Positions 3,045-37,870 of a DNA stretch of 56,522 bases are shown piece by piece; positions within the stretch are counted from its first letter, which is position 1, and every line of letters starts with the position of its first letter. The translations under genes and the position numbers were made by a program. The notes beneath the pieces are model-generated. The model made no database searches. It was not told where the DNA came from and was given only the letters and a program-made list of their open reading frames with translations. The DNA is from Candidatus Zixiibacteriota bacterium (GTDB taxonomy: Bacteria; RBG-13-66-14; B26-G2; WVWN01): assembly GCA_050117845.1 (NCBI GenBank), contig JASFLY010000017.1:1-56522 (forward strand), read 5' to 3'.

Positions 3045-4208
3045 ATGTACATCGCGAAGCGAATGAGCCGGCTCGGTACCGAGACGGCTTTCGAGGTTTT
3101 GGCGAAGGCCAAGGCGCTCGAATGCCAGGGGCGAGACATCGTCCATCTGGAAATCGGCGAACCGGATTTCGATACGCCGGTGAACATTCGGGAAGCCGCC
3201 AAGCGCGCCCTCGACGAGGGCTGGACGCACTACGGCCCCAGCGCCGGCTTGCCGGAGAACCGCAAGATAATCTCGGAGTACATGAAGAAGTACTGGGACC
3301 TCGATTACACGACGGACGAAATCGTCGTCGTCCCCGGCGCCAAGCCCATTATGTTCTATACTATCTTGGCCTGCGTCGAGGATACCGACGAAGTCATCTA
3401 CCCCAACCCCGGGTTCCCCATCTACGAGTCGATGATCAACTACATCGGCGCCAAGGCCGTGCCGATTCAGCTTCGCGAAGAACTGGACTTCCGGCTGGAC
3501 GTGAACGAACTCGCTTCCCTCGTGAACGATAAGACGCGCCTTGTTATAATCAACTCGCCGCAGAACCCGACCGGTGGCGTCCTGACCCCCGACGACCTCA
3601 AGGCCGTCGCCGACCTCGCCGTCAAGCACGACTTCATGGTCATGTCGGACGAGGTTTACAACCGTATTATTTACGACGGCGAGCATCACTCCATCGCGAG
3701 TTTGCCCGGCATGAAGGAACGGACCATCATCATCGACGGTTTCTCGAAGACCTACGCCATGACGGGGTGGCGTCTCGGCTGGGGCGCCATGCCCGCCGAC
3801 CTGGCGCCGCACATCACGCGCCTGATGACGAATTCCAATTCCTGCGCCTGCTCCTTCGCGCAGGTCGCCGGGATGGAGGGCCTGACCGGCCCGCAGGAAG
3901 ACTCGGCCAAAATGGTGGAGGCCTTCCGCCAGCGCCGCGACGTTATAGTGGACGGAATGAACTCCCTGCCGGGGGTAACCTGCAAAAAGCCCCGCGGCGC
4001 GTTCTACGTTTTCCCGAACATCACCGGAACCGGCAAGGACGAAAAATTCCTGGCCGACTATTTCCTCAACGAAGCGGGCGTGGCCTGCCTCGCCGGGACG
4101 TCTTTCGGCGCGTTCGGCAAGGGCTACATCCGTTTCTCGTACGCCAACTCGGTGGACAATATCGAGAAGGCTATCAGCCGCATGGGCGAAGCCCTGAAGT
4201 CGCTGTAG
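3045..4208 (+). CDS. pyridoxal-phosphate aminotransferase class I/II (aspartate/aromatic aminotransferase-like)
   Basis: SKTYAMTGWRLGW lysine motif, NPTG, and the N-terminal LEIGEPDFDTP motif of the AspAT family. Confidence 0.85.
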   Translation: MYIAKRMSRLGTETAFEVLAKAKALECQGRDIVHLEIGEPDFDTPVNIREAAKRALDEGWTHYGPSAGLPENRKIISEYMKKYWDLDYTTDEIVVVPGAKPIMFYTILACVEDTDEVIYPNPGFPIYESMINYIGAKAVPIQLREELDFRLDVNELASLVNDKTRLVIINSPQNPTGGVLTPDDLKAVADLAVKHDFMVMSDEVYNRIIYDGEHHSIASLPGMKERTIIIDGFSKTYAMTGWRLGWGAMPADLAPHITRLMTNSNSCACSFAQVAGMEGLTGPQEDSAKMVEAFRQRRDVIVDGMNSLPGVTCKKPRGAFYVFPNITGTGKDEKFLADYFLNEAGVACLAGTSFGAFGKGYIRFSYANSVDNIEKAISRMGEALKSL

Positions 4209-4221
4209 GGGGGCGGCGGGA

Positions 4222-5325
4222 ATGTCGAAAGTTATCAAAACGCCGCTATACGAAAAACACGTCTCACTCGGCGGCAAGATGGTCGAGTTCGCCGGCTACA
4301 TGATGCCGGTTCAATATACCGGGATTATCGACGAGCACTTAACCGTGCGCGAGAACGCCGGTATCTTCGACCTAAGCCACATGGGCGAGTTTTTCGTATC
4401 GGGCAAGGGCGCCCCGGCGGCCCTCAACCACGTCGTCACCAACGACGTCGAGAAGCTCAAAGTGGGTCGGGCGTTGTACACTCCCGTGTGTACGCCGGAA
4501 GGCGGCATCGTGGACGACATCCTCGTCTACCGCGATGCCGACGAGGAGTACATGCTGGTCGTCAACGCCTCCAACATCCCTAAGGACTACAAGTGGTTCC
4601 AGGACCACCTGCCGAAGGGCGTTAAGCTCGACGACCGATCGCTCGATACGGCCCTCGTGGCCGTGCAGGGACCGCAGTCGGAAGCCATTCTCGGCGAGGC
4701 CACCGGTGCCGACCTGAGCACGCTGAAGTACTACGCCTTCATGCAGACGGTCATCGACGATATTCCGGTGCGCCTGTCGCGAACCGGATACACCGGCGAG
4801 GACGGCTTCGAGGTCTACGTGAAGAACGAATACGCCCCGGACATCTGGGACATCCTCTTCGACCTCACGGCCGGTATCGGCGGCGTGCCCGTGGGCCTCG
4901 GGGCCCGGGACACCCTTCGCCTCGAGATGAAGTATTGCCTCTACGGCAACGACATCGACGAGACGACGACGCCGCTCGAGGCGGACATCGCCTGGACGGT
5001 CAAACTCGGCAAGGAAGATTTCATAGGCCGGGAGCCCCTTCTCAAGCAGCACGACGACGGCCTCTCCCGCGAGCTGGTCGGTTTCGTTATGGTCGACCCG
5101 GGCGTGCCCCGCCACGATTACGAGATAATCGACGTGGACGAACAGAAGATAGGGCGCGTGACCTCCGGGTCCTATTCGCCGAGCCTGGGCGAGAATATCG
5201 GCCTCGGATACCTGGACGTCGGCAACGCGGACGTCGGGACCGAGATTATGATAAATATCCGCAACAAACCGCGTTTGGCACGCGTGGTCGAAACGCCGTT
5301 TTTAAAACTACTCGGCGGAAAATAA
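4222..5325 (+). CDS. gcvT: glycine cleavage system T protein (aminomethyltransferase)
   Basis: TPLYEKHVSLGGKMVEFAGYMMPVQY ... GIFDLSHMGEF matches the GcvT N-terminus. Length is 367 aa. Confidence 0.9.
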   Translation: MSKVIKTPLYEKHVSLGGKMVEFAGYMMPVQYTGIIDEHLTVRENAGIFDLSHMGEFFVSGKGAPAALNHVVTNDVEKLKVGRALYTPVCTPEGGIVDDILVYRDADEEYMLVVNASNIPKDYKWFQDHLPKGVKLDDRSLDTALVAVQGPQSEAILGEATGADLSTLKYYAFMQTVIDDIPVRLSRTGYTGEDGFEVYVKNEYAPDIWDILFDLTAGIGGVPVGLGARDTLRLEMKYCLYGNDIDETTTPLEADIAWTVKLGKEDFIGREPLLKQHDDGLSRELVGFVMVDPGVPRHDYEIIDVDEQKIGRVTSGSYSPSLGENIGLGYLDVGNADVGTEIMINIRNKPRLARVVETPFLKLLGGK

Positions 5326-5351
5326 ACGGCCATTTGCGAAAGGAGCCGCCG

Positions 5352-5729
5352 GTGTATCCGGAAGATCTGCGCTACGACGAAACGCACGAGTGGGCGAAGG
5401 TGGAGGGCGACGTCGCCACCATCGGCATCACGAATCACGCCCAGTCGGAACTGGGGGATATGGTTTACCTCGAGCTGCCCGCCGTGGGTACCGAGGTGAC
5501 GGCCGGCGGCGAGTTCGGCGTCGTCGAATCGGTCAAGGCCGCGTCGGACGTCTACGCCCCGCTCTCCGGCAAGATAATAGAGGTCAACGACGCCGCCGTC
5601 GAGGACCCCACCGCCGTGAACCGCGACTGCTACGGCGAGGGGTGGCTCGTCAAGATAGAGATAAAAGACGCCTCGGAAGTCGAGAACCTCAAATCGGCCG
5701 CCGAGTATAAAGAGTTCATCGGAGCATAA
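5352..5729 (+). CDS. gcvH: glycine cleavage system H protein (lipoyl carrier)
   Basis: GTG start with an AGGAG RBS. LRYDETHEWAKVEGDVATIGIT ... ESVKAASDVYAPLSG carries the lipoyl-lysine motif. Confidence 0.85.
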   Translation: MYPEDLRYDETHEWAKVEGDVATIGITNHAQSELGDMVYLELPAVGTEVTAGGEFGVVESVKAASDVYAPLSGKIIEVNDAAVEDPTAVNRDCYGEGWLVKIEIKDASEVENLKSAAEYKEFIGA

Positions 5730-5847: not shown

Positions 5848-7200
5848 ATGCCGTACGTTCCCCATACCGACAAAGACAGGGGGGAAATGCTCGCCGGCCT
5901 CGGCGCCGCGAGCGTTGACGAATTGTTCTCGCCCGTCGCGAAGGAACTCCTGCGCGACGGTTTCGACCTGCCGGAGGGGCTGGACGAACCCGCCTTGGCC
6001 CGGCACATGGAAGAGCTGGCCGCGGAAGGCCGGGCGCACAACCTCTCGTTCCTCGGCGCCGGCTGCTACGACCACTTCGTGCCCGCCGCCGTAAAAGATC
6101 TCGCCGGCCAGAGCCAGTTCTACACTGCGTACACGCCGTACCAGCCCGAAGTCAGCCAGGGTACGCTGGCGGTCATCTTCGAGTTCCAGACCTACGTCGC
6201 CGGCCTCACCGGCATGGAGGTCGCCAACGCGTCCATGTACGACGGCGCGACCGCCGCGGCCGAGGCCGCGCTTATGTCGCTCCGCGTAAAGCGGGACCGC
6301 TCCCGCGTCATGCTGGCGCCCAACCTCCACCCGGAGTACCGGCAGGTCGTCGAGACCTACCTCTCCAACATCCCGGGCGTGTCCGCCCGGACGCTGGAGT
6401 GCTGCGCGCCGTACGCCGAGGGCGGCAAGGTGGACCTGAACCGCCTCACCGGGTCGCTGGGCGAGTCGGCCTGTTTCATCATGCAGTACCCGAACTTTTT
6501 CGGCCTGGTGGAAACGGACCTCGCCGAGATAGCGGAAGTCGTCCACGGCGAGGGGGCGCTCCTCGTCGTCGCGGTGGCGGAGCCCTTGAGCCTCGCCCTG
6601 CTCGAGCCGCCCGGCAAGTTCGGCGCCGACATCGTCGTGGGGGAGGGGCAGAGCTTCGGCCTGGCCCGTTCCTTCGGCGGCCCGGGCGTCGGCCTCTTCG
6701 CGACCCGCATGGAGTATGTGCGCCAGATGCCCGGCCGGTTGGTCGGCAAGACGACGGACCGGGAAGGCAAGCCGGGCTACGTTATGACGCTCCAAACCCG
6801 CGAGCAGCACATCCGCCGGGAGAAGGCCACCTCCAACATCTGCACCAACCACGCCCTCGCCGCCACTATTTTTACTATATTCCTCTCGACCGTGGGCCGG
6901 ACGGGCCTGCTCGAGCTGGCCCGGCAGAACCTGCAAAACTGTACCTACGCCCAGTACAAGACGACGGAACTCGCCGGTTATATAATGGTCTTCGAGGAGC
7001 CGGTCTTCAACGAGTTCGTCTTGCGCTGTCCCAGGGACGCGGAGGAAGTGCGCGCGGCGTGTCTGGAGCGGGGCGTCGACCCCGGCCTGCCGCTGGGCCG
7101 CTTCTACCCCGAGTACGACGACTGCCTCCTCGTCACGGTCACGGAGACCAAGACCAAGGCCGACATCGACCGGCTGTGCGAGGCGCTGGCGTTGGCGTAA
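5848..7200 (+). CDS. gcvPA: glycine dehydrogenase (decarboxylating) subunit 1
   Basis: MPYVPHTDKDRGEMLAGLG ... GAGCYDHFVPAAV is typical of the GcvPA N-terminal half of the P protein. Confidence 0.9.
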   Translation: MPYVPHTDKDRGEMLAGLGAASVDELFSPVAKELLRDGFDLPEGLDEPALARHMEELAAEGRAHNLSFLGAGCYDHFVPAAVKDLAGQSQFYTAYTPYQPEVSQGTLAVIFEFQTYVAGLTGMEVANASMYDGATAAAEAALMSLRVKRDRSRVMLAPNLHPEYRQVVETYLSNIPGVSARTLECCAPYAEGGKVDLNRLTGSLGESACFIMQYPNFFGLVETDLAEIAEVVHGEGALLVVAVAEPLSLALLEPPGKFGADIVVGEGQSFGLARSFGGPGVGLFATRMEYVRQMPGRLVGKTTDREGKPGYVMTLQTREQHIRREKATSNICTNHALAATIFTIFLSTVGRTGLLELARQNLQNCTYAQYKTTELAGYIMVFEEPVFNEFVLRCPRDAEEVRAACLERGVDPGLPLGRFYPEYDDCLLVTVTETKTKADIDRLCEALALA

Positions 7201-7221
7201 AGGAGGGACGCGGGGGAGGAT

Positions 7222-8226
7222 ATGATGCGGGCAATAATCGCCGGGATCGTTACGGCGGCCGTGGCGCTGGCCATCGCCGTAACGTTCCGTGAGTACGATT
7301 GGGTCCTGGATGGTATGGCGCCGGGATGGCGCGGACCGGACTTTATCGCCCCGGGCGCGAAGTTGCCGGAGGCCGATTTCGAGGGATGGGTGCCTCCCGA
7401 CCCCGTAATCCACGTAAGCGAGAAGTGGGTTAAGGTTAGCGGCAAACGCGTCGTGTCCGCCGACGAAGTGATCTCCGATCCCGATTATGTTATAGAGTCA
7501 CTTCATGAGGAAATCGTATTTGCCGTCGAGGGCCGGTGGGACCGCTCCTGCGCGCTCAGTCGTTGGAATACGTATCTTAAGGTACCTATATCCGGCGACG
7601 CTAGCGGCAACCCCCGCGGCGTTATTATCCAGGCCGACGAGGGGGTCGAATTCGGATTACTTCGGACCGTTTTATATAACTGCCACAGGGCCAACTGCGA
7701 AGCATGGCGCCTCGCGGCCGTTAACGGCGAAAGCGGCGCGCTTGAAGTTGTAACGGTCCACCCGTTGTTTCTGCGGTACCCCTGGCCCGAGGGTCTTTGG
7801 GGAGTCGGCGCCGGCCCCGTTTCGGGTATCTCGCCCGCGTTGACCGAACGGGAGGGCGTAAGCGAGTTGGACCTGGAGTACGGTCCTATTCCCGAAATCG
7901 AGGGGCCGTTGGGGGAGGACATTCAATATGCCGTTGTTTTATACGTCGGCGAAGGTTGGTTTCTACTCCCGGATAGAGAGGCCGGCGCGACGCTCATATT
8001 GCGCGACGACGGCGACGGCGCGTATACTTTGTTGGCGGAGAAACTTAAACGGATTAAACGACGGTACCCCGACCAAAGGTGTTTGATAATCGTGTGCACC
8101 GCCGGCGTGGAATACGAGGAACTCATCCGCGTCCTGGAAGTTTCGGTTCAACCCGAAATCGCCTTAACGGAAATATACCTGGATCTGGCGCTGCTGGAAG
8201 AGAAGCAACGAGTAATTATAGATTAG
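7222..8226 (+). CDS. membrane-anchored protein with two ExbD/TolR-like periplasmic domains (paralog A)
   Basis: N-terminal TM helix. Two segments fit the ExbD/TolR periplasmic fold, with ...IIQADEGVEFGLLRTVLY... and ...LIIVCTAGVEYEELIRVLEVS... as its VVIRADKdVpYg-type cores. The family call is tentative. Confidence 0.4.
   Translation: MMRAIIAGIVTAAVALAIAVTFREYDWVLDGMAPGWRGPDFIAPGAKLPEADFEGWVPPDPVIHVSEKWVKVSGKRVVSADEVISDPDYVIESLHEEIVFAVEGRWDRSCALSRWNTYLKVPISGDASGNPRGVIIQADEGVEFGLLRTVLYNCHRANCEAWRLAAVNGESGALEVVTVHPLFLRYPWPEGLWGVGAGPVSGISPALTEREGVSELDLEYGPIPEIEGPLGEDIQYAVVLYVGEGWFLLPDREAGATLILRDDGDGAYTLLAEKLKRIKRRYPDQRCLIIVCTAGVEYEELIRVLEVSVQPEIALTEIYLDLALLEEKQRVIID
8119..8178 (+). repeat. ~60-nt near-identical segment shared with 9003..9062 (3' ends of the two ExbD-like paralogs)
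   Basis: Direct comparison: gaactcatccgcgtcctggaagtttcggttcaacccgaaatcgcctt(a/g)acggaaatatac occurs in both genes. The gene bodies are much more diverged. Confidence 0.8.
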
Positions 8227-8264
8227 CGGCCTTAAAGGCGTAAAGAAGGAGAGCGGGGGAGGAA

Positions 8265-9095
8265 ATGACGCGGGCCATTATTGCCGGGATCGTTACGGCG
8301 GCCGTGGCGTTCGCCATCGCCGTAACGCTCCGCGAGGACGTCGGCCTAAGGTGGTTCGGGCCCGATTTCATAGCCCCCGGCGCCAGGTTGCCGGAGGCCA
8401 GGATGGGGGAGAAGCCGCCCGCCGCCCCGGTCGTCCACGTTAGCAGGGAGTGGATTACGGTCCGCGCCAAACGCGTGGCCTCGGCCGAAGAGGCGATTGC
8501 CGACGAGGATTTAATTATAGATGGTTTTTACGGGGAGTTAGTTTCGATCGGTGAAACGTTAGGGAAATGGGATGGGCCCCGTGTGATTCCAGTTGACGCC
8601 GAGGGTCGAATTATCCCCGAATATGGGCCCGAAGACGATTTAATTATTCAAGCCGATAGGGACGTCGAATTCGAATTACTACGCCGCGTTTTTTATACTT
8701 GTGGCCGCGCCGAGTACGGGAGGTTGAACCTTGCGGCAATTAATCCGGATAACCGGGAGTTGGGAGTATTCTCCTTGGATTTACCTACCCTCGGCGATAT
8801 AGACGAACTTGAACCTGAGCCCGGTTTAATAATGGGGGATGATTCGTTGAAGCTAAGTTATAGAGATACCTCCGGGGAGTACGTATTTAGTACCATCGAA
8901 AAGGATTATTCCGTATTGGCGGAGGAGTTAAGGCAAATGAAACGGCGGCGGCCCGGGCAGAAGAGTTTATTGATCATTTGCGCCGCCCACGTGAGATACG
9001 AAGAACTCATCCGCGTCCTGGAAGTTTCGGTTCAACCCGAAATCGCCTTGACGGAAATATACTTAGCCAAATCGGTCGAGGCTTTTGTTAAATGA
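8265..9095 (+). CDS. membrane-anchored protein with two ExbD/TolR-like domains (paralog B)
   Basis: N-terminal 25 aa and C-terminal ~25 aa are near-identical to 7222..8226. The middle is diverged, with visibly lower GC over ~8500-8950. Confidence 0.4.
   Translation: MTRAIIAGIVTAAVAFAIAVTLREDVGLRWFGPDFIAPGARLPEARMGEKPPAAPVVHVSREWITVRAKRVASAEEAIADEDLIIDGFYGELVSIGETLGKWDGPRVIPVDAEGRIIPEYGPEDDLIIQADRDVEFELLRRVFYTCGRAEYGRLNLAAINPDNRELGVFSLDLPTLGDIDELEPEPGLIMGDDSLKLSYRDTSGEYVFSTIEKDYSVLAEELRQMKRRRPGQKSLLIICAAHVRYEELIRVLEVSVQPEIALTEIYLAKSVEAFVK
9003..9062 (+). repeat. second copy of the ~60-nt segment (see 8119..8178)
   Basis: Identical apart from one or two substitutions. Confidence 0.8.
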
Positions 9096-9586
9096 AAATC
9101 GCAACCATAGTAATGGGGGTAATCGTCGCGATCCTGATTGGCGTCGCGATATGGCGGGGCGAAGGTTCCTTGCAGAAGGGCCTTACCTTCGGCGGCAAGA
9201 CCTTCCTGAGTACGTTGCCGCTGCTCGTTTTCGCCTTCGCGATAGCCGGCCTGGTGCAGGTCCTGGTGCCGCGCGAGTTCATCGTAAAGTGGTTGGGTGA
9301 AGGGTCGGGGATTAAAGGCATTTTAATAGCGACGGTCGTGGGCGGCCTGACGCCCGGCGGCCCCTACGTCTCGTTCCCCATCGTGGCCTCGCTGTACAAG
9401 GCCGGCGCGTCGGTGGGGACGGTGGTGGCCTTCGTGACGTCGTGGTCGGTATGGGCCTTCAACCGCCTCCCTTTGGAGATAGGACTGGTCGGCCCCAAAC
9501 TCGCGATCGCCCGTTTCCTGACGACGCTCATCGTCCCGCCGCTCGCGGGCCTGTTCGCGCAGGCCGTGTTCGGCCGGTGGCTCTAA
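9092..9586 (+). CDS. small polytopic membrane protein, putative permease (DUF318/ArsP-like half-size)
   Basis: Four or more hydrophobic helices. The GGLTPGGPYVSFPIVASLYKAG motif resembles predicted-permease families. Overlaps the upstream stop (ATGA). Confidence 0.4.
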   Translation: MKIATIVMGVIVAILIGVAIWRGEGSLQKGLTFGGKTFLSTLPLLVFAFAIAGLVQVLVPREFIVKWLGEGSGIKGILIATVVGGLTPGGPYVSFPIVASLYKAGASVGTVVAFVTSWSVWAFNRLPLEIGLVGPKLAIARFLTTLIVPPLAGLFAQAVFGRWL

Positions 9587-9607: not shown

Positions 9608-11071
9608 ATGAATTTCGAATATCGTAACATCTTCGAAGTCCCCGGCGGCCCGGCGTTCCGGGTGGGCCGGACGGATACCCCCGACGTTAAACCCGAGGAG
9701 TTCTTCCCGAAAGAGTTCCTGCGGACGGACCTGGGGCCGATGGCCGACCACGCCGAGGGCGAGGTCGTCCGGCACTACACCCGGCTGGCGGCGATGAACT
9801 TCGGCGTCGATTCCGGCTTCTATCCCCTCGGGTCCTGCACCATGAAGTACAACCCCAAAATAAACGAGGAAGCGGCGCGCCTGCCCGGCTTCGCTAACCT
9901 GCACCCCTACGCCACGCCCCGGGACGCGGCGGGAGCGCTGCGCCTGATGTACGAACTCGAGCGCGACCTCTCCGAGATATGCGGCATGGCGGCCTTCACG
10001 CTCTGCCCGGCGGCCGGGGCCCACGGCGAACTCGTGGGGATGCTCATGGCCCGGGCGTACCACCGGGCGAACGGCGGCGACGGCCGCAACGTCATGCTTA
10101 TCCCCGACTCGGCCCACGGGACCAACCCCGCGTCGGCCCGGATGGTGGGCTTCGACGTCGTATCGGTGAAGTCGACCGACGAGGGTCTCATCGACCTCGA
10201 CGACCTCAAATCCAAATTGGACGACCGCGTCGCCGGCATGATGATAACGAACCCGAATACGCTGGGCCTCTTCGAGCGCGACATCCTGGAGATTGCGAAG
10301 CTCGTGCACGGGGCCGGCGGCCTGCTCTACTACGACGGCGCGAACCTGAACGCCATCGTGGGCCGCGCCCGCCCCGGCGACATGGGTTTCGACATCTGCC
10401 ACGTCAACCTGCATAAAACGTTCTCGACGCCGCACGGCGGCGGCGGCCCGGGCTCCGGGCCCGTCGGCGTCTCCGCCCGGCTGGTCGATTTCCTCCCGGT
10501 CCCGCGCGTCGTCAAGGAAGGCGACGGCTACGGTTGGGCCGAGGCCTGCCCGAAGTCCATAGGCCGGATCCGTTCCTTCGCCGGGAACTTCGGCGTGCTC
10601 GTCAAAGCCTACACGTATATACGGAACCTCGGCGCGGCGGGTCTCAGGAACGTGGCCGAGGCTGCGGTGCTGAACGCCAACTACCTCCGGGCCCGGGTGG
10701 CCGAGTTCCTGGAAGTGGCTGGCTCCGCCCCCTGCATGCACGAGTTCGTGGCGTCGTCGGAGAAGTTCGGCCGCGGTTCCGCCGGGGATATAGACAAGGC
10801 ACTGATAGACGCCGGCTACCACCCGCCGACGACTTACTTCCCGCTGGTGGTGCACGAGGCGCTCATGATCGAGCCGACCGAGACCGAATCCCGCGAGACG
10901 CTGGACGCCTTCGCGGATACGCTCGCGGCTATCGTGGCCGAGATGGAGAAGGACCCGCACGCCTACGCCGACGCGCCGCTGTTGGCGCCGGTGCGGCGTC
11001 TCGACGAGGCCGGGGCCGCCCGCAACCCCGTCCTCACGCAGATGATGGCCGAGGCGGCGGGCGAAGAGTAA
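9608..11071 (+). CDS. gcvPB: glycine dehydrogenase (decarboxylating) subunit 2
   Basis: HYTRLAAMNFGVDSGFYPLGSCTMKYNP ... SAHGTNPASA are the PLP-binding-half motifs of the P protein. Confidence 0.9.
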   Translation: MNFEYRNIFEVPGGPAFRVGRTDTPDVKPEEFFPKEFLRTDLGPMADHAEGEVVRHYTRLAAMNFGVDSGFYPLGSCTMKYNPKINEEAARLPGFANLHPYATPRDAAGALRLMYELERDLSEICGMAAFTLCPAAGAHGELVGMLMARAYHRANGGDGRNVMLIPDSAHGTNPASARMVGFDVVSVKSTDEGLIDLDDLKSKLDDRVAGMMITNPNTLGLFERDILEIAKLVHGAGGLLYYDGANLNAIVGRARPGDMGFDICHVNLHKTFSTPHGGGGPGSGPVGVSARLVDFLPVPRVVKEGDGYGWAEACPKSIGRIRSFAGNFGVLVKAYTYIRNLGAAGLRNVAEAAVLNANYLRARVAEFLEVAGSAPCMHEFVASSEKFGRGSAGDIDKALIDAGYHPPTTYFPLVVHEALMIEPTETESRETLDAFADTLAAIVAEMEKDPHAYADAPLLAPVRRLDEAGAARNPVLTQMMAEAAGEE

Positions 11072-11075: not shown

Positions 11076-11741
11076 GTGGCGGACTGGAGCGGGTACCGCT
11101 TGATAGTCGACGGCCCGGGCGAGGCGCGGGAGAACATGGCCCGGGACGAGGCCCTGCTGGCGGCCTACCGGGCCGGGGAGATTCCGCCCACGTGGCGGCT
11201 CTACACCTGGCGGGAGCCGGCGGTCACGTACGGCCGGTCCCAGGAAGCGCCGGCGTGGCCCGCCGAGGTAACCGTGTTGCCCCGGGTGAGCGGCGGCGGT
11301 TACGTCCCCCACGGCGCGGACTTCACGTACTGCGTCGTGCGGGAGCGGCGGACCGGTTTCAGCAATTACGAGGACATCGTGGCCGCGGTGGCCGCGGCGC
11401 TGGCGGAGTTAGGCGTTCCGGCGGACGTGTGGCGGAGCGGCCCGGCGGGCGCGGCGGGTCGTTGTTTCGCGTCGCTCGCGCCCTTCGACGTCCACGTCAA
11501 GGGCAGGAAGATAGCGGGTTGCGCCCAGCGCCGTTTCCGCGACGCGATACTGCATCACGGCTCGATTGCGGCGGCGGTTCCGGCCCCGGCCTTGCGCGAC
11601 CTCGGCCTCTGGGACGAGCGGCGAACGGTAACTCTGGAATCCATCGCCGGCCGAAGCGTCGAATTGGCGGAGTTCGCCGAGGCGCTGGCGGCGATTACGG
11701 GTATGCAAATAACTCCGGTTTCAAGCGCAGAGGATAAGTAA
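11076..11741 (+). CDS. lipoate-protein ligase / octanoyltransferase family protein (LplA/LipM-like catalytic domain)
   Basis: YRLIVDGPGEARENMARDEALL resembles the LplA N-terminus. Has the BPL/LplA/LipB-type domain. Sits in the GcvH context. Confidence 0.65.
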   Translation: MADWSGYRLIVDGPGEARENMARDEALLAAYRAGEIPPTWRLYTWREPAVTYGRSQEAPAWPAEVTVLPRVSGGGYVPHGADFTYCVVRERRTGFSNYEDIVAAVAAALAELGVPADVWRSGPAGAAGRCFASLAPFDVHVKGRKIAGCAQRRFRDAILHHGSIAAAVPAPALRDLGLWDERRTVTLESIAGRSVELAEFAEALAAITGMQITPVSSAEDK

Positions 11742-11743: not shown

Positions 11744-12655
11744 ATGAAAATAAAAAAAGTGATACTCTCGGGATGCGCGCTAATAATCGTAGCGGCCCTC
11801 GTCGGATGCGGCAAGGGACAGGCCCCCGAGCCCGAGGTAGTGGCCCGCGTGGGCGACGCCGTCCTTACGCTGGACGAACTCAACCGGCTGGACGAGGACC
11901 AGCATCGCGTAAAGATGCCGACCTACCTCACCAAAGAGGAGCTGATGGAGGAGTGGATTCGCAGCGAGGTCCTCTACCAGAACGCGGTGGAGGAGGGCGT
12001 TCCGGAGGAGAAGGAATGCGCCTGGCGGATCCGCAACAGCGCCAAGGGGATCGTCATCCAGCGGTACTGGGAACTCAACGTCTACGAAAAAAAGGCCGAA
12101 GTCAGCGACGAGGAAGCCCTGGCCTGGTACGAGGATAATAAAGAAAAAAGCTACCGGGCCAAGGAAACCGGCGTCTGGCTGAGGCGGATACTCCTTAATT
12201 CCGAAGGGGCGGCCGCCGACGTTTTGGCGCGTATCGGTAAGGGCGAGGACTTCGCCGCCGTGGCCTTGGACGTTTCGGTTACGCCCGAAAAGCTGAAAGG
12301 CGGAGACCTGGGATATCGGCGCCTGGGCGACGTCAGCCCGACTTACCGGGACGCCGTCGGGAAGATGAAGGAGGGCGAGGTCGCCGGGCCGTTCCGCCTC
12401 GGTCAATTCTACGCCGTATTGAAATTGGAAGACCGGGTGGATGCGGGCGATTACCTGAAGCCCGAGGGCATCGGGATGGAAAGCCTGCGCGATAAGGCGA
12501 AGGTCGAGATGTGGCGCGAGAAGGCGGCCCGCATCGCCGCGGACCTCGGCGCCGCGGCGGACGTCGAACGTCACCCGGAGCGGATCCCCGAGCCGGCCGT
12601 GGATATGGCGTTGGGGGAGGATCTTAAACCGGGGACCGCCGAAAAGGGCGAATAG
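11744..12655 (+). CDS. lipoprotein with parvulin-type peptidyl-prolyl isomerase domain (PrsA/SurA-like)
   Basis: Lipobox LVGC. The LKGGDLGYRRLGDVSPTYRDAV ... GEVAGPF segment resembles the PpiC/rotamase domain. Confidence 0.6.
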   Translation: MKIKKVILSGCALIIVAALVGCGKGQAPEPEVVARVGDAVLTLDELNRLDEDQHRVKMPTYLTKEELMEEWIRSEVLYQNAVEEGVPEEKECAWRIRNSAKGIVIQRYWELNVYEKKAEVSDEEALAWYEDNKEKSYRAKETGVWLRRILLNSEGAAADVLARIGKGEDFAAVALDVSVTPEKLKGGDLGYRRLGDVSPTYRDAVGKMKEGEVAGPFRLGQFYAVLKLEDRVDAGDYLKPEGIGMESLRDKAKVEMWREKAARIAADLGAAADVERHPERIPEPAVDMALGEDLKPGTAEKGE

Positions 12656-14128
12656 ATGGACCGAGACCTCGGATCGATTCAGGAAGCGCGCGATTGTATC
12701 CGGGCCGGCCGCAAGGCCGCGGAGGCGTTCGCGCACTTCGGCCAGGAGGCCGTCGACCGTATAGTCGCGGCCATGGCGCGTGCGGCCGAAGAGGCCGCCG
12801 TCCCCCTGGCGGAATCGGCGGCCGAGGAAACGGCCTTCGGCGTCGCCCGGGATAAAATACAGAAAAACCTCTTCGCGGCGCGCAACGTATACGAGTACAT
12901 AAAGGATATAAAGACCTGCGACGTAATCGCGGACGACCCGGCGACCGGCGTCACCGAGATAGCGAGCCCCGTGGGCCTCATCGCCGGCATAACGCCTACG
13001 ACCAACCCCACGTCGACGACCATATATAAAGCGCTGATTTCGGTAAAAGCGCGGAACGCGGTAGTTTTCTCGCCGCACCCGGCGGCGCTGCGCTGCTCGG
13101 GAGAGGCGGCCGCGATATTGGCCCGGGCCGCGACGGCCGCGGGAGCGCCCGAGGGCGTAATAACGTGGTTGACGCAGCCCACGGCCGAGGCCGCCGAGGA
13201 GTTAATGCGGCACCGCGACGTGGACCTTATCCTCGCGACCGGCGGGATGGCGATGGTGCGGGCGGCGTACTCCTCCGGGAAGCCGGCGTACGGCGTCGGT
13301 CCGGGGAACGTCCCTGCCTATATCGACCGCTCGGCCGACGTGCCGCGGGCCGTCGCCGACATCATATCGTCCAAAACGTTCGACAACGGCGTCATCTGCG
13401 CGTCGGAGCAGGCGGTGGTTTGCGACGCGCCGGCGCGGGACGAGGCGACCCGGGAATTCGAGCGGGGCGGCGCGGCCTTCCTCTCGGCCGAACAGAAACG
13501 CGCGGTCGCGAAAGTCCTCGACGGCGGCGGCCGCCTCAACCCGGCGGTCGTGGGGCAGCCGGCGAGCCGCATCGCCGAGATGGCCGGCTTCGCCGTCCCG
13601 GCGGGCACGAAGCTTTTAATCGGATACGAGGACCGGGTGGGCCCGGACTTCCCGTTCTCCTGGGAGAAGATATCGCCCGTGCTGGCCTGGTACGATACTA
13701 CCGACTGGAAGGCCGGGTGCGAGCGCTGCATGGAAATCCTGGCGTACGGTGGCATGGGGCATACGCTCTCGCTGCACGCGCGCGACGAGGAGGTCATCCG
13801 CGAGTTCGGCCTCCGCAAGCCCGTCTACCGCGTCGTCGTCAACACGCCCTCCTCCCAGGGCGCCATCGGCCTTACGACGGGCCTCGCGCCGGCGCTGACG
13901 CTCGGCTGCGGGACGTTGGGCGGCAATATCACGTCGGACAACATTACGCCCCGGCACCTCATGCACGTCAAGCGCGTGGCCCGGGGACGGGCGCCGGTTA
14001 CTCCCGAGAGTACGGCTTGCCCGGCGGTCGAAGGCGGCGACTCGCCCTGCGGCGGCACGGCCGACCCGGTCCTGGTGGAAAAGATAGTACGGGAGGTCCT
14101 CCGGGAATTGGGAAAAGGGGCGAGTTAG
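12656..14128 (+). CDS. CoA-acylating aldehyde dehydrogenase (EutE/PduP/AdhE-N family), BMC core enzyme with C-terminal encapsulation-peptide-like helix
   Basis: SKTFDNGVICASEQAVV catalytic-Cys motif of acetylating ALDHs. C-terminal DPVLVEKIVREVLRELGK amphipathic helix follows a low-complexity linker. Confidence 0.85.
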   Translation: MDRDLGSIQEARDCIRAGRKAAEAFAHFGQEAVDRIVAAMARAAEEAAVPLAESAAEETAFGVARDKIQKNLFAARNVYEYIKDIKTCDVIADDPATGVTEIASPVGLIAGITPTTNPTSTTIYKALISVKARNAVVFSPHPAALRCSGEAAAILARAATAAGAPEGVITWLTQPTAEAAEELMRHRDVDLILATGGMAMVRAAYSSGKPAYGVGPGNVPAYIDRSADVPRAVADIISSKTFDNGVICASEQAVVCDAPARDEATREFERGGAAFLSAEQKRAVAKVLDGGGRLNPAVVGQPASRIAEMAGFAVPAGTKLLIGYEDRVGPDFPFSWEKISPVLAWYDTTDWKAGCERCMEILAYGGMGHTLSLHARDEEVIREFGLRKPVYRVVVNTPSSQGAIGLTTGLAPALTLGCGTLGGNITSDNITPRHLMHVKRVARGRAPVTPESTACPAVEGGDSPCGGTADPVLVEKIVREVLRELGKGAS

Positions 14129-14620
14129 ATGGTCCTCTTCGTACGCCGCATCGTCGACGCGTTCCGAAGACGGCCCCTGGATTTGCACGTTTTCTGCCTG
14201 GTCCTCTTCATGATCGGCGCCGTTTTCGTCTTCGGGTACCAGGTGCGCGTCTTTTGGGAGGTCGTGATTACGGACCGGACGCCCCTGGAGGGGACGCCCG
14301 TCTTCCAGGCGCTCACCGGCATGACGCTGTTGACCGACCTGGTGTGGTCGCCGTTTCTCGTGGCTTCGTCGATAGGTATCTGGCTGTACCGGAACTGGGG
14401 CCGCAAGCTCGGTTTCATCATCGGCGGCGTCATGGCCTATATGGGGACGCAGGGGCTGCTATTCTTCCCGCTGACGCGCCGCTTCGGCGTCGACGCGGTG
14501 GAGGACTTCACTCGCTATTACGAATTCACGGCCTATATGGCCTACTACGCAATTTACGCGGCCGTCGGGTTCACGATGATATTTTACCTCTGGTTCCGAA
14601 AAATAGACTTGAGCCGGTAG
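14129..14620 (+). CDS. hypothetical 4-TM integral membrane protein embedded in the BMC locus
   Basis: Four hydrophobic helices and aromatic-rich. No family recognised. Confidence 0.5.
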   Translation: MVLFVRRIVDAFRRRPLDLHVFCLVLFMIGAVFVFGYQVRVFWEVVITDRTPLEGTPVFQALTGMTLLTDLVWSPFLVASSIGIWLYRNWGRKLGFIIGGVMAYMGTQGLLFFPLTRRFGVDAVEDFTRYYEFTAYMAYYAIYAAVGFTMIFYLWFRKIDLSR

Positions 14621-14676
14621 CATTTATTTGATAAATAGCGTTAAACGTATTCATACCATACGCGAAAGGAGCGAGG

Positions 14677-14976
14677 ATGCCCTCTAAAACGGAGATGGCC
14701 CTCGGAATGGTGGAAACGCGGGGCCTCGTGGCCGCAATCGAAGCGGCGGACGCGATGGTCAAGGCGGCGAACGTTCGACTCTTGGACAAGGTGCGGGTCG
14801 GCGGCGGCCTCGTAACCGTACTGGTGCGCGGCGAGACCGGCGCGGTCAAGGCCGCGACGGAGGCCGGCGCGGCGGCGGCGGCCAAGGTCGGCGAACTCGT
14901 ATCGGTCCACGTTATCCCGCGGCCCGACGACCACGTGGAATTTATACTCCCGGAAGAAGTCGGGAAAAAAGGCTAA
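14677..14976 (+). CDS. BMC shell protein, single-domain hexamer type (BMC-H, PduA/EutM-like)
   Basis: [29 protein letters not shown] is the canonical PF00936 BMC-domain signature. AGGAG RBS. Confidence 0.9.
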
Positions 14977-14995
14977 GCGGGGAAAACGTTAAGAC

Positions 14996-15823
14996 ATGGC
15001 CGCGGACGACCATGAAGCCGTTGTACGGGCTGTAACCGCGGCGGTGATGGCGAAGCTGGGGGCCGGCGGGCCTCGGACTTTCGAGGCGCCGGTGGGCGTT
15101 TCCGGCCCCCACATTCACCTGACGCCCGGGGACGTGGCGACGCTGTTCGGCGCCGGCGCGCGTTTGTCGGTAATGAGGCCGCTGGTGCAATGCGGCCAGT
15201 TCGCGGCGAACGAAGCGGTGACTATCGTCGGGCCGGCTTCGTCGCTTTCCGGCGTTCGCGTGGTCGGCCCGACGCGCGAGAGCACGGTGGCGGAACTTCT
15301 GGCGGGGGACCTGGTGCGGCTCGGCCTGGACCCGGACGTACGGGCGGGCGAGCCGTTCGCCGTTACCGTCGCGGGACCCGCGGGCGTCGTCCACCTTCCG
15401 GCGGGGGGCGTCGTGGCCCGGCGGCACCTCCACGTCCCGGCGGCCAGGGCCGGAGAATTGGGCGTGACGGACGGGATGGACGTCTCCGCGCGGATGGGTG
15501 CGCCGGGGCGGCGGGTTACGTTCCACGACGTCCTGGTGCGCGTGAGCCCGGAGGCCGGCCTGGAACTCCACGTCGACCGGGAGGAGGCCAACGCTTGCGG
15601 CGTCCGGACGGGAGCCGCGGCCGAGATCGTGATGGGCGCGGCCGTTCCCGCGGCGAGCGGGGTGCCGGCGAAAACGGCCGGAAGGCCCCTCGTAACCGAG
15701 GAAGACGTCGTGCGGGCCCACGCGGAAGGCCGGGAGCCCCGGCTGGCGGGCGCCATTCTTACGCCTTACGCCCGGGACGCCGTCCGTAAATTATTCCCGG
15801 AGTTGCTTAACTTTTTAGAATGA
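14996..15823 (+). CDS. phosphate acyltransferase PduL/EutD-type (phosphotransacylase of metabolosomes)
   Basis: Two PduL repeats: VGVSGPHIHLTPGDVATLFG and VVARRHLHVPAARAGELGV. N-terminal EAVVRAVTAAVMAKLG is amphipathic and encapsulation-peptide-like. Confidence 0.8.
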   Translation: MAADDHEAVVRAVTAAVMAKLGAGGPRTFEAPVGVSGPHIHLTPGDVATLFGAGARLSVMRPLVQCGQFAANEAVTIVGPASSLSGVRVVGPTRESTVAELLAGDLVRLGLDPDVRAGEPFAVTVAGPAGVVHLPAGGVVARRHLHVPAARAGELGVTDGMDVSARMGAPGRRVTFHDVLVRVSPEAGLELHVDREEANACGVRTGAAAEIVMGAAVPAASGVPAKTAGRPLVTEEDVVRAHAEGREPRLAGAILTPYARDAVRKLFPELLNFLE

Positions 15824-15946
15824 GTTATAATCCTATAAGGAAAGAAACATAATGAACGGGACCGGGGCCGGTTCCGCTAACGCGCGACGCGGCCTCCGGC
15901 GCATACGGCCGACGCGTAGGCCGGTTTATTATTGGGGTTCGATACG

Positions 15947-16219
15947 ATGATGCGGATCGCGGAAGTGGTGGGCAACGTGTGGGCGACGCGCAAGGTTGAA
16001 AGCGTGCGCTCTCTCAAGATGCTGCTCGTTCGACCCTTGAACGCCGACCTAAAACCGACCGACGAAATGTGGGTCGCGGCGGACGTGGTGGACGCCGGCG
16101 CCGGCGACCGGGTCATCGTCGCCGTAGGCCGGGCGGCCCGGCTGGCGGTGGGCGACGACGACGCGGCCGTATCCGCGGCCGTTGTAGGCGTCGTGGACTC
16201 GCACGAGGTGAAGGCGTAA
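15947..16219 (+). CDS. BMC vertex protein (BMC-P, EutN/CcmL/PduN family)
   Basis: MMRIAEVVGNVWATRK N-terminus and ~90-aa size are typical of PF03319 pentamer proteins. Confidence 0.8.
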   Translation: MMRIAEVVGNVWATRKVESVRSLKMLLVRPLNADLKPTDEMWVAADVVDAGAGDRVIVAVGRAARLAVGDDDAAVSAAVVGVVDSHEVKA

Positions 16220-16226
16220 CGGCCCG

Positions 16227-17537
16227 ATGACCTTCGTCGAGACCATTAGAAACGCCGGAATCCTGGGGGCCGGGGGAGCCGGCTTCCCGGCTCACGTGAA
16301 GTACGGCCGGGAGGCCGAGATACTTATTATTAACGGTGCGGAGTGCGAACCCCTCTCCCGCAAGGACGCGGCCATCCTGGCCCACCGGGCCGCCGACGTA
16401 GTAACCGCGGCCGGTACGTTGCGGGAGGAACTCCGGGCCCGGGAAGTAATCCTGGCGGTCAAGGGGCCCGCGGCGACCGAAATAAGCGGCCTTTACGGCG
16501 GCGTCAGGATACACCCTTTGCCGGAGGTGTATCCCGCCGGCGACGAGGCCGTCCTGGTATACGAGGTGGCGGGCCGTCGCGTTCCGGCCGACGGCGTTCC
16601 GCCCGACGTGGGCGTCGTTGTCTCGAACGTCGAGACGGTGCTCAACGTCGCCCGGGCGGGCCGGGGAGCGCCGGTGCTCACGACCTGGGTGACGGTGGCG
16701 GGGGCGGTGCGCGAGCCCTTCACCGCGGAGGTTCCGGTCGGGACGGGCGCGCGTTTTCTCATAGACGAGGCGGGCGGCCCCGCGGTCGCCGATTACGTCG
16801 TCTTTGAGGGGGGACCGATGATGGGCGAGGAGGTGGACCCGGCCTCGTTCGGCGTCGGGCCCACGACCGGTTTGATCCTCGTCCTGCCGGCGGGCCATCC
16901 GGTGGTGGCGCGAAACCGCCTGCCGCTCGAGCACGTACGGACCATCGCCGGTAGCGCCTGCACGCAGTGCCGCGACTGCACCGAGATGTGCCCGCGGTAC
17001 CTCCTGGGCTACGACGTTACGCCCCACCTTTCGATGCGGCGCTTCTTCAGTTGGGGCGACGACGCCGCGGCCGCGGGGGAGTTTTTCGCGAACGCCGCCG
17101 GCTGTACCGGCTGCGGCCTTTGCGAATTGTACGCCTGCCCGATGGCCATATCGCCTCGTCGCGTCCAGCTTCACTTGCGGGAAATCGTAACGGCGGCGAG
17201 GGCCGAAGGGGCCGGCGAGGTGCACGCCGACCGTTCGGGGCGGCAGGTCCCGGCGGGGCGGCTCAAGAAGCGCATAGAAGTGGACGAGTACGACCGGCCG
17301 GCGCCGCTGCGGGAACTCGCCGAGGCGCCCCGGACGGTGACGATAAAGCTGGTTCAACCGTACGCCGGCGCGCTCGACGTACTCGTGCGGGAGGGGGACC
17401 GCGTGGAAGCGGGGCAGGTTCTGGCGAAGCCGAAAGAGGGCGACGACCGGGCCGTACCGGCGTACGCGAGCATCGGCGGCCGGGTGGCCGCGGCCGGCCC
17501 GGGCGAAGTGACGATAGACCGAACGCAGGTGGCCTAA
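16227..17537 (+). CDS. RnfC/PduS-like Fe-S flavoprotein (SLBB + NADH-binding motif + two 4Fe-4S clusters)
   Basis: GILGAGGAGFPAHVKY is the RnfC/NuoF/PduS motif. Cys clusters CTQCRDCTEMCP and CTGCGLCELYACP. Confidence 0.75.
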   Translation: MTFVETIRNAGILGAGGAGFPAHVKYGREAEILIINGAECEPLSRKDAAILAHRAADVVTAAGTLREELRAREVILAVKGPAATEISGLYGGVRIHPLPEVYPAGDEAVLVYEVAGRRVPADGVPPDVGVVVSNVETVLNVARAGRGAPVLTTWVTVAGAVREPFTAEVPVGTGARFLIDEAGGPAVADYVVFEGGPMMGEEVDPASFGVGPTTGLILVLPAGHPVVARNRLPLEHVRTIAGSACTQCRDCTEMCPRYLLGYDVTPHLSMRRFFSWGDDAAAAGEFFANAAGCTGCGLCELYACPMAISPRRVQLHLREIVTAARAEGAGEVHADRSGRQVPAGRLKKRIEVDEYDRPAPLRELAEAPRTVTIKLVQPYAGALDVLVREGDRVEAGQVLAKPKEGDDRAVPAYASIGGRVAAAGPGEVTIDRTQVA

Positions 17538-17564
17538 CGCGTTGCGGTTAAGGAGATGTTGGCG

Positions 17565-18275
17565 ATGATAAGGAAAACGGCGATAATGCTGCTGGCGCTC
17601 GCGACGTTCGCGGCGGTAGGGTGGGCCGACTACGAGAAGCCGGACCTCGAGAAAGCGGACATCGACAAGGACGACCTCGCCCGTTTCAAGGAGGCGTACA
17701 CCCGCTACCTCGAGGGCGTCGAGTTCGAAAAGGAAGGGTCCTGGGTGTCGGCGAGCAAGTCGTACCGCGCGGCGGTGGATATTTACAATAACTATCCGGA
17801 CGCGCAGTACGGCCTGGGCCGGATGGCCCTGCGGCTGGGCCGCCTCGACGAGGCGGAGGATGCTTTGCGGGAAGCCCTTACCCTCAAGCCCGAACTGCAC
17901 CAGGCCCACACCGAACTCGGCAGCGTGCATTACCGGCGCGGCGATTACAATAAAGCTGCGTTCGAATATAAGGAAGCGCTCAAGCACGACTCGAGCGACG
18001 TCGTGGCCCGCTACAACCTGGGTAACGCATACCGGAACCTGGACAAGCCCAAGAACGCGATCGACCAGTACGAAAAGACGCTCGCGCTCGACGCTTCTTA
18101 CGTGGACTGTTACTACAACATGGCGCTGGCCTACGAGGACCTGGAAGACGCGGACAAGGCCATCACGGCGTACGACAGGTTCATAGAGGCGGCGCGGGAC
18201 GACCCCGATCAGGCCGAGTGGGTAAATCGGGCGAAAGAGTATAAACAGAAATTATTGGACGAGAAGGGTAAATAG
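17565..18275 (+). CDS. TPR-repeat protein, probably lipo/secreted, inside the BMC locus
   Basis: Signal-like IMLLALATFAAVGW. Multiple 34-aa TPR units (AQYGLGRMALRLGRLDEAE, AHTELGSVHYRRGDY, ARYNLGNAYRNLDK, CYYNMALAYEDL). The first ATG (17556) lacks RBS spacing, so the second was chosen. Confidence 0.65.
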   Translation: MIRKTAIMLLALATFAAVGWADYEKPDLEKADIDKDDLARFKEAYTRYLEGVEFEKEGSWVSASKSYRAAVDIYNNYPDAQYGLGRMALRLGRLDEAEDALREALTLKPELHQAHTELGSVHYRRGDYNKAAFEYKEALKHDSSDVVARYNLGNAYRNLDKPKNAIDQYEKTLALDASYVDCYYNMALAYEDLEDADKAITAYDRFIEAARDDPDQAEWVNRAKEYKQKLLDEKGK

Positions 18276-18833
18276 TTGACGCTGCCGGAAGAGGCCATCG
18301 GCCTGGTCGAGTTCTCATCCATCGCCCGGGGCATCGAAGCCGTGGACGCGATGGTGAAGGAGGCGGACGTCCGGCTGCTGGCGGCGCGGACGGCGTGCTC
18401 CGGCAAGTACATCGGCCTCGTGGCCGGGGCGGTCGCGGCGGTGAAATCGGCGGTGAGCGCCGGCAAGGATATGGGGCGAGGGCATTACGTAGACGGTTTG
18501 GTAATCCCGAACGTGCACAAACAGGTCCTGGCCGCGGCGGCCGGGACGGTGGAAGTACCCGAAAAGGGGGCCCTGGGGATAATCGAGACGTTTTCGCTGG
18601 CGTCCGCCCTTTTGGCGGCGGACGCGGCGGTGAAGGCCGCGCCGGTGACGCTTCTGGAAGTGCGCCTCGGCACGGGCATAGGCGGTAAAGGTTTCGCCAC
18701 GCTGGTGGGCGAGACGGCGGCGGTAACGTCGGCCGTGGGCGCGGGCGCTCGAGAGGCGTCGGCCCGGGGCCTTCTGGTCGCGACCGCGGTAATCCCGGCT
18801 CCGTACCGGGAAGTGATGGATAAACTCATATAA
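18276..18833 (+). CDS. tandem-domain BMC shell protein (BMC-T, PduT-like)
   Basis: Two BMC domains: IGLVEFSSIARGIEAVDAMVKEADVRLL and LGIIETFSLASALLAADAAVKAAPVTLLEV. TTG start assumed. Confidence 0.75.
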   Translation: MTLPEEAIGLVEFSSIARGIEAVDAMVKEADVRLLAARTACSGKYIGLVAGAVAAVKSAVSAGKDMGRGHYVDGLVIPNVHKQVLAAAAGTVEVPEKGALGIIETFSLASALLAADAAVKAAPVTLLEVRLGTGIGGKGFATLVGETAAVTSAVGAGAREASARGLLVATAVIPAPYREVMDKLI

Positions 18834-18859
18834 CCGGTAACTGGCGGTATGATTAAGAG

Positions 18860-19147
18860 ATGACTGTCAAGGAGATAATCAACGTAAAGGGTAAGCACCT
18901 CGGCTATTTCGAAGCCTGGTGCAAGGCGTGCGGCATTTGCATCGCGCTGTGCCCGAAACACGTCTTCGACACCGGGGCCGACGGCAAGCCCATCGTGGCC
19001 CGGCCGGCCGATTGCATAAACTGCGGCATGTGCGAAATCATGTGCCCCGATTTCGCGATAGGCTGGTACGAGGACCCGTTGTGTGACGAAGAGTTGAAAG
19101 AGGCTCACAAACGCAGTGGCGACGACGAGTGGGCCAAGCACCGCTAA
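18860..19147 (+). CDS. 2-oxoacid:ferredoxin oxidoreductase delta subunit (2x[4Fe-4S] ferredoxin)
   Basis: CKACGICIALCP and CINCGMCEIMCP motifs in a ~95-aa protein immediately upstream of the alpha subunit. Confidence 0.75.
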   Translation: MTVKEIINVKGKHLGYFEAWCKACGICIALCPKHVFDTGADGKPIVARPADCINCGMCEIMCPDFAIGWYEDPLCDEELKEAHKRSGDDEWAKHR

Positions 19148-19189
19148 CCAATCGTTCTTAACTCCGTTCATAAGGTAGCGTGCAGTAAA

Positions 19190-21171: not shown

Positions 21172-21173
21172 TA

Positions 21174-37851: not shown

Positions 37852-37870
37852 ATATCGGTAATACCGATAT
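37852..37870 (+). promoter_or_regulatory. perfect 9-bp-arm palindrome ATATCGGTA-A-TACCGATAT, 17 nt upstream of the paralog-1 start codon
   Basis: Read from the sequence. A degenerate version (ATATTTCGGTAATGCTTATAT) is present at the same position upstream of paralog 2. Confidence 0.35.

Follow-up and report, generated by a model that had tools for sequence, protein, structure and literature searches.

Tandem ExbD-derived paralogs beside a half-size permease in the glycine-cleavage operon of a Candidatus Zixiibacteriota bacterium

The glycine-cleavage operon of a Candidatus Zixiibacteriota bacterium raises the question why the genes for the two subunits of its P-protein are separated by three genes for membrane proteins, and what two of these, a tandem pair of paralogs, have become. 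The locus lies in a stretch of 56,522 nucleotides (contig JASFLY010000017.1 of assembly GCA_050117845.1, positions 1 to 56,522 of the forward strand), hereafter the window, which according to its NCBI label belongs to a metagenome-assembled genome. As stated in a first-pass annotation made from the sequence, gcvT, gcvH and gcvPA are contiguous and gcvPB is reached only after paralog A, paralog B and a small permease, as judged from open reading frames (ORFs) and Pfam. On the plus strand, gcvPA (P-protein subunit 1, 5848-7200, Pfam GDC-P 401 bits) is followed by paralog A (334 aa, 7222-8226), paralog B (276 aa, 8265-9095), a half-size UPF0718/ArsP_1 permease (164 aa, 9092-9586, Pfam ArsP_1) and gcvPB (subunit 2, 9608-11071, Pfam GcvP2_C 68.6 bits). 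The reading preferred here, with a probability of roughly one half for the package as a whole, is that the paralogs derive from ExbD, are not stators and serve as an accessory of the permease. Confidence is high for their identity and history, i.e., descent from ExbD, fusion architecture, duplication in place and gene conversion; the accessory role is one that we infer only, and it is put forward tentatively.

The relationship to ExbD lies just below the cut-off in Pfam and is better supported by other comparisons. Pfam ExbD (PF02472) scores A with 23.6 bits and B with 24.7 bits against a gathering threshold of 25.4, aligning profile positions 89-125 only, and in several close relatives PF02472 is flagged by precomputed annotation; NCBIfam gives no match for A or B. 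When 1.84 billion representative proteins were searched with a family profile, 170 matches at E <= 0.001 were returned. Most of these are proteins of ~160 aa that align to one of two regions of the profile, namely positions 36-160 (domain 1) or 165-270 (domain 2), and the sampled ones are recognised by Pfam ExbD from end to end. Directly compared, the ExbD3 protein of a genuine Ton operon (locus L092) shares 39% identity with B across 129 aa (E 1e-26), and a search of PDB sequences has matched ExbD chains only, with weak E-values of 0.013-1. The juxtamembrane LPEA motif and an IIQAD..V.F.LL core are shared with ExbD, and domain 1 aligns with domain 2 over 74 colinear columns (hhalign, E 1.2e-3). 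The proposal that each paralog carries duplicated ExbD/TolR-like domains is thus borne out by profile, direct and PDB sequence matches together with hhalign, and the paralogs have the periplasmic alpha/beta fold of ExbD/TolR. In A the family alignment places an N-terminal helix at 7231-7287, domain 1 at 7387-7761, a long linker at 7762-7926 and domain 2 at 7927-8190; in B the helix lies at 8274-8330 and the domains at 8412-8780 and 8814-9074. The ORFs are as originally described, and their products share 41% identity from end to end (BLASTP E 2e-62). The paralogs clearly descend from ExbD/TolR, yet we would not class them as functional ExbD or TolR.

The route from a single-domain ExbD to the two-domain chain is indicated by P0135, a protein of 304 aa that is the best match of the family profile outside the family (E 5e-37), is 31% identical to B over 257 aa, and is colinear with the window family across both domains. 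Its gene stands in an operon of the order MotA_ExbB, ExbD1, P0135, ExbD3, TonB, TonB (L092 4814-10373; also L093-L095). Over its residues 1-177 P0135 shares 75% identity with the adjacent ExbD3, and over residues 174-297 it shares 72% with the periplasmic part of the adjacent ExbD1; consequently, P0135 is explained by a fusion of two ExbD paralogs and not by a recent internal duplication. In effect it is a single-chain heterodimer of ExbD periplasmic domains, and the fusion looks to have been born of a tandem duplication of the ExbD1-ExbD3 pair and a subsequent in-frame join. A fusion ancestry of this kind would have provided the window paralogs with their single N-terminal helix and two periplasmic domains of ExbD/TolR fold. 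Two further proteins, P0143 and P0157, carry two ExbD-like domains behind a lipoprotein-like signal (LxxC) instead of an ExbD helix, so that tandem ExbD domains may have become detached from the motor on more than one occasion.

The origin of the pair itself is indicated by a 5' repeat of 87% identity. Its first copy (7194-7297) comprises the last 7 nt of gcvPA, a ribosome-binding site and the coding part for the N-terminal helix of A, and its second (8237-8340) consists of a GGCGTAA remnant, a ribosome-binding site and the corresponding part of B. As the repeat opens with the GGCGTAA that ends gcvPA in copy 1, and hence starts inside gcvPA, the second copy has been made by tandem duplication in place. 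The conserved 5' ends had been recognised before, as had a 3' block shared by A (8119-8178) and B (9003-9062); the block is real but was taken to be fully identical, whereas 59 of its 60 positions agree. Counted over identical residues, third-codon-position identity is 83% in codons 1-20 and 94% in codons 295-314, and it falls to 25-55% across most of the middle, which agrees with the strong divergence noted there; one middle window of 19 codons reaches 100%, a value resting on four identical residues only. Across this 3' block the identity between A and B is 95%, while they share 82-83% with copy 1 (E1) and 67-68% with copy 2 (E2) of the closest related locus, L008, which likewise holds two ExbD-like genes. 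The block being closer between A and B than to the L008 orthologs, the gene conversion originally suggested is supported as an intragenomic event. At the 5' block all four copies (A, B, E1 and E2) are 88-92% identical, so that conversion and constraint are inseparable there; the N-terminal helix region is conserved even at the nucleotide level. Window B, in second position, is nearer to copy 1 of L008 than to copy 2 and is 100% identical to copy 1 over a part of ~100 nt, and the middle of A (~7490-8030) has no close DNA relative in any compared locus. Such a mosaic is in keeping with unequal crossing-over that recurred within a tandem array. The window copies thus arose by duplication in place, and their 3' ends were homogenised later through gene conversion.

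Among related genomes the family has been found to be rare, with 13 proteins at E <= 1e-3 among 5.8 billion and a few more distant members, and bound to one slot. Wherever the context is available (L001-L009, L017, L020, L025, L096, L097), the ExbD-like gene stands between gcvPA and the half-size permease, and in the majority of cases its end reaches up to or into the start codon of the permease; in the window the stop of B overlaps this codon as ATGA. The slot is the same where flank proteins are only 71-82% identical and also in L017, whose family member is ~31-36% identical over the alignable part. In L010-L012, L019, L022 (a Candidatus Coatesbacteria chromosome) and L023, for example, the permease separates gcvPA from gcvPB without an ExbD-like gene. 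The permease is therefore present throughout the compared gcv loci, while the ExbD-like gene occurs in 0, 1 or 2 copies, two having been seen in the window and in L008. A short contig (L018 2-1108) carries a divergent tandem pair, in which a B-type C-terminus is followed by a P0136-type protein (~24% identical to B). Neighbour-joining trees of the flanks scatter the 0-copy loci among 1-copy loci, and the distribution of A-like and B-like types disagrees with these trees; the cassette comes in no fewer than three or four divergent types, discordant with flank phylogeny. The gcvPA-permease spacers of 0-copy loci, including the 158-nt spacer of L023, contain no ExbD-like remnant, which leaves gain and loss indistinguishable. 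Taken together, the permease is the constant and older interruption of gcvPA-gcvPB in this lineage, and the ExbD-like gene is the variable cassette, for which a recurrent exchange of alleles between lineages is a possible part of the best explanation. In L020 (4023-5186) the gcvPA match comes in two pieces (4023-4721 and 4881-5183), for which a frameshift, an insertion or an assembly error is possible.

The composition of the paralogs is unusual. A GC trough in paralog B, reported in the first-pass annotation, has been confirmed by windowed analysis, with 48% GC over 8500-9100; the background of ~67% given with it holds for gcvPA and gcvPB, the contig mean being 63%. Windows of 451 nt with GC <= 50% make up 1.3% of the contig and lie at two places, one being paralog B. 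The other (37281-37900, minimum ~40%) adjoins a gene for ribosomal protein L31 on the minus strand (37014-37742), and Rfam finds nothing there. The GC content at third codon positions (GC3) of the ExbD-like gene is 0.48-0.67 in every locus (0.67 for A), compared with 0.70-0.91 for its neighbours, and is therefore a long-standing property of the gene and not the mark of a recent arrival.

Its evolution is also faster. Between the window and L008 the flanking genes show a synonymous divergence (dS) of 0.08-0.17 and a ratio of nonsynonymous to synonymous divergence (dN/dS) of 0.04-0.11; for B and copy 1 of L008 these values are 0.33 and 0.27, and for other ExbD-like pairs 0.21-1.5 and 0.20-0.47. 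Overall, dN/dS amounts to 0.2-0.47 for ExbD-like genes and 0.04-0.16 for neighbours. The excess of synonymous divergence over the flanks points to old alleles, allele exchange or a locally higher mutation rate. In B-type genes the corresponding ratio pN/pS is 0.14-0.16 in the domain cores and 0.56-0.76 in loops, linker and C-terminus, and it exceeds 1 in no 25-codon window, so that positive selection has not been detected. Of the rapid diversification suggested at first, the faster change relative to the neighbours and the variable copy number have stood; a pN/pS above 1 has not been reached. The ExbD-like gene is thus coding and under purifying selection, with much weaker constraint than its neighbours.

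Weak constraint of this sort leads to the alternative that survives best, according to which the paralogs are near-neutral passengers, relics of a displaced Ton gene that are expressed through their operon position alone. A dN/dS ~2-7 times that of the neighbours in the same locus pair, the atypical composition and the repeated absence of the gene from sister lineages would all agree with such relics. The ORFs, however, remain uninterrupted in some dozen independent loci that are deeply diverged, with 33 invariant and ~29 nearly invariant columns and the low pN/pS of the domain cores, the helix is conserved down to its nucleotides, and the gene is kept and duplicated instead of decaying. We consider passengers of this kind rather unlikely, though they come ahead of the other alternatives.

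A little less probable is a module driven by conflict, in which a periplasmic decoy or variable target derived from the Ton motor would be kept in divergent alleles by frequency-dependent selection, owing to bacteriocins or phages that exploit Ton/Tol. Polymorphism in presence and copy number, allele types discordant with the flank tree, a dS above that of the flanks (as left by old alleles or exchange), variable loops over a conserved core, and tandem arrays with gene conversion are what such selection might leave behind. The dN/dS of the genes stays within the range given above, without a window above 1, and PADLOC defence models match neither A nor B nor the permease. Moreover, the genes are always found in one metabolic operon beside the permease and not in a defence island, and we know of no system that works in this way, which has been counted against the proposal. 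About equally improbable is a broader conjecture, in which a single-chain mimic of an ExbD1/ExbD3 heterodimer, devoid of a proton sensor, might have been recruited either as a hypervariable decoy or modulator (binding the usual interaction partners of ExbD, such as the TonB linker, peptidoglycan, or an invading protein from a bacteriocin or phage) or to serve a half-size UPF0718 transporter as its accessory subunit, the first of this kind to be known, with frequency-dependent selection maintaining the polymorphism of copy number and alleles.

Whether the paralogs still work as motor parts has been judged from the helix. Canonical ExbD and P0135 possess 20-35 cytoplasmic residues ahead of the helix and a helix motif (L/M)ID. 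In the window family the helix starts at residue 4 (AIIAGIVTAAVAFAIAVTL) without a cytoplasmic N-tail, residues 4-22 of A and B contain neither Asp nor Glu, and a Thr is aligned with the Asp column of ExbD. The transmembrane Asp concerned is D25 in ExbD, D23 in TolR and D32 in MotB. It is conserved across TolR, ExbD and MotB, and the motor combines five ExbB with two ExbD helices (PMC7391070). In E. coli ExbD, 18 of 19 substitutions of Asp25 abolish activity, D25E keeps 5-10%, and the Asp cannot be shifted to another place in the helix (bioRxiv 10.1101/2022.09.26.509584). As had been remarked, no partner is nearby: neither MotA_ExbB/TolQ nor TonB has been found in the 56.5-kb window by Pfam on the scanned ORFs or by six-frame tblastn with ExbB and TonB of one related Ton operon. 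One helix per two domains, the absent Asp and the lack of a nearby ExbB or TonB do not fit a stator, and for want of the transmembrane Asp the energy-transducing stator fragment considered earlier is not upheld. The alternative that they are nevertheless working Ton/Tol-type stators, paired with ExbB/TolQ encoded elsewhere and using the proton-motive force to energise an outer-membrane process tied to glycine metabolism, can draw on the clear ExbD homology with its LPEA motif and IIQAD..V.F.LL core, on a closest outgroup that belongs to a Ton operon, and on the genome being visible over 56 kb only. Against it stand the Thr in the Asp column, at a position where all changes but D25E kill E. coli ExbD (bioRxiv 10.1101/2022.09.26.509584), the missing tail, a ratio of helix to domains that mismatches the 5:2 arrangement of ExbB and ExbD (PMC7391070), the absence of the gene from sister lineages with the same operon, and the window free of ExbB and TonB; we regard this alternative as very unlikely.

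The weakest explanation, a recent horizontal insertion of all three genes with low GC as a sign of foreign DNA, which extends the recent insertion considered in the first-pass annotation, could appeal to the trough in B, to a GC3 of A and B far under that of the neighbours and to the absence of the ExbD-like gene from some close relatives, but is hardly credible, as the permease has a host-like GC3 (0.83) and the same place in all related loci, the ExbD-like gene keeps its slot and its low GC3 in diverged lineages, no mobility genes or repeats flank the insert, and copy 2 opens with a remnant of the gcvPA stop region that marks duplication in place.

Returning to the preferred reading of ExbD-derived, non-stator accessories, the ExbD-like protein would be translationally coupled to the permease and act as a dispensable accessory facing the periplasm. 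Having lost the cytoplasmic N-tail and the proton-responsive Asp, it would not be a stator driven by the proton-motive force. The conserved helix, rich in small residues, would keep it in or at the inner membrane, and the two domains may associate within the chain, mimicking the ExbD/TolR dimer, and attach to peptidoglycan or to some protein of the periplasm. The contig encodes LpxC, LpxA, LpxI, an outer-membrane efflux protein (OEP) and an AcrB-type pump, which indicates a diderm host, and domains beyond the inner membrane accordingly face the periplasm; the description of the module as surface-exposed is thus wrong for such a cell.

The permease in question covers positions 8-132 of the 294 of the ArsP_1 (PF03773) profile, with 56.3 bits against a threshold of 32.3, and its AlphaFold 2 (AF2) model is all-helical, with a mean per-residue confidence score (pLDDT) of 88. 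It has 474 homologs at E <= 1e-3, and among the 120 matches listed nearly all measure ~160-190 aa. The N-terminal half of the NCBIfam models SaoE and SO_0444 is matched far under their cut-offs (44.7 vs 325), and the 164 residues include zero cysteines. In ArsP, which exports organoarsenicals, cysteines bind trivalent arsenicals. An efflux of arsenicals or metals that would guard the lipoyl dithiol has been rejected for the lack of cysteine and the scores far below the SaoE and SO_0444 cut-offs, and lipoate import, considered in view of the adjacent lplA, has been set aside. The permease presumably works as a homo-oligomer. Proteins of this half size (~164 aa; L013-L091) form a UPF0718/ArsP_1 family of their own in many phyla, mostly as a single gene, and tandem pairs occur in L080 and L084-L090. 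They share an invariant T-P-G-x-P motif between two short helices, and Lys/Arg are nearly balanced between the two loop sets by our count, which would allow a dual topology. Two distant members have neighbours related to amino acids, namely a CN-hydrolase and a Na+/alanine symporter in L013 (4689-7492) and a radical SAM enzyme resembling lysine 2,3-aminomutase in L015 (7001-8670), a hint of an amino-acid-related substrate. The 293-aa gene upstream of the L015 permease is not ExbD-like.

Several observations weigh against the preferred reading. Both paralogs fall ~1-2 bits under the Pfam ExbD cut-off, and the AF2 model of B reaches a pLDDT of only 64.6, with the N-terminal 51 residues below 50, so that the helix could be a cleavable signal peptide and not an anchor. 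No permease residue separates loci with from loci without an ExbD-like gene, and distant half-size permeases (<= 66% identity) are never found in a gcv context or beside an ExbD-like gene. The search for ExbB, finally, has covered one contig of the genome, and a partner may be encoded elsewhere.

The remaining genes nearby, all on the plus strand, are an aminotransferase gene (3045-4208) upstream of gcvT, gcvT itself (aminomethyltransferase, 4222-5325, an ORF whose orthologs in related loci carry GCV_T and GCV_T_C), gcvH (lipoyl carrier, ~5340-5729 with an uncertain start codon, assigned from its translation and from orthologs of 125-131 aa with GCV_H) and, behind gcvPB in the same operon, a gene for a protein with a lipoyl ligase domain of the LplA/LipB type (11076-11741, Pfam LplA-B_cat 84.9 bits). 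A consensus scan of the operon for promoters and terminators has given counts at shuffle background overall, with a single weak promoter-like match on the plus strand near the 3' end (11759-11787) and a single terminator-like match inside gcvPA; no terminator is predicted on the coding strand within the operon gcvT-gcvH-gcvPA...gcvPB-lplA. Rfam finds neither a glycine riboswitch nor another RNA element over the operon. The ligase gene is followed on the plus strand by a PpiC-type isomerase and an acylating acetaldehyde dehydrogenase, the latter belonging to a bacterial microcompartment locus (12656-21743) directly after the gcv operon. This locus also encodes a 163-aa ORF without family match, BMC-H, PduL, an EutN-like ORF, an RnfC-like flavo-iron-sulfur protein, a TPR protein, a tandem-BMC shell protein, a ferredoxin and a three-subunit 2-oxoacid:ferredoxin oxidoreductase; no aldehyde-generating signature enzyme has been recognised in it. 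The synteny of gcv and microcompartment genes is kept in L001, L002 and L010-L012, and L019-L025 likewise have the aldehyde dehydrogenase gene behind the operon. Elsewhere the window contains a class A bacterial RNase P RNA (39974-40366, Rfam 264.8 bits), a gene for the selenocysteine elongation factor SelB (43492-45426) and one for a tyrosine recombinase (phage integrase family, 54443-55627) close to the end of the contig.

ExbD, TolR and MotB have been treated as obligate partners of a five-subunit proton channel. The lineage described here shows that the periplasmic module of ExbD can be fused into one chain, lose its Asp and leave the Ton operon, and that such a module can persist for long beside an unrelated transporter inside a core metabolic operon. 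No earlier account of an orphan ExbD derivative of this kind or of this gcv arrangement has turned up in the literature searched, which concerned Zixibacteria with microcompartments and glycine cleavage, ExbD in tandem or orphan form, and UPF0718. With its conserved flanks, a copy number of 0, 1 or 2, gene conversion and alleles of several classes, the slot offers a clean natural case of a variable cassette. Should a binding partner be found, it would reveal roles of the ExbD periplasmic dimer apart from force transduction. For the physiology of these uncultured bacteria, the permease and the downstream microcompartment locus may outweigh the ExbD-like genes.

Compared with known systems, the paralogs stand closest to ExbD/TolR (PF02472), from which they differ in having two periplasmic domains per chain, in lacking the cytoplasmic tail, the transmembrane Asp and an ExbB or TonB neighbour, and in lying inside a glycine-cleavage operon, just below the Pfam cut-off. 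With P0135 they share the order of helix, ExbD3-type domain and ExbD1-type domain; P0135, in contrast, retains the cytoplasmic tail and a PLID motif with the Asp, and sits between ExbD1 and ExbD3 beside ExbB and two TonB genes. The operon itself has the gene order gcvT-gcvH-gcvPA...gcvPB-lplA of split P-protein operons, in which gcvPA and gcvPB are adjacent, whereas in this lineage they are parted throughout by one to three genes for membrane proteins. Likewise, the 164-aa permease matches the N-terminal half of full-length UPF0718/ArsP_1 permeases such as ArsP, the Cu/Zn efflux protein SO_0444 and SaoE, and differs from them in being half the size, free of cysteine and embedded in gcv.

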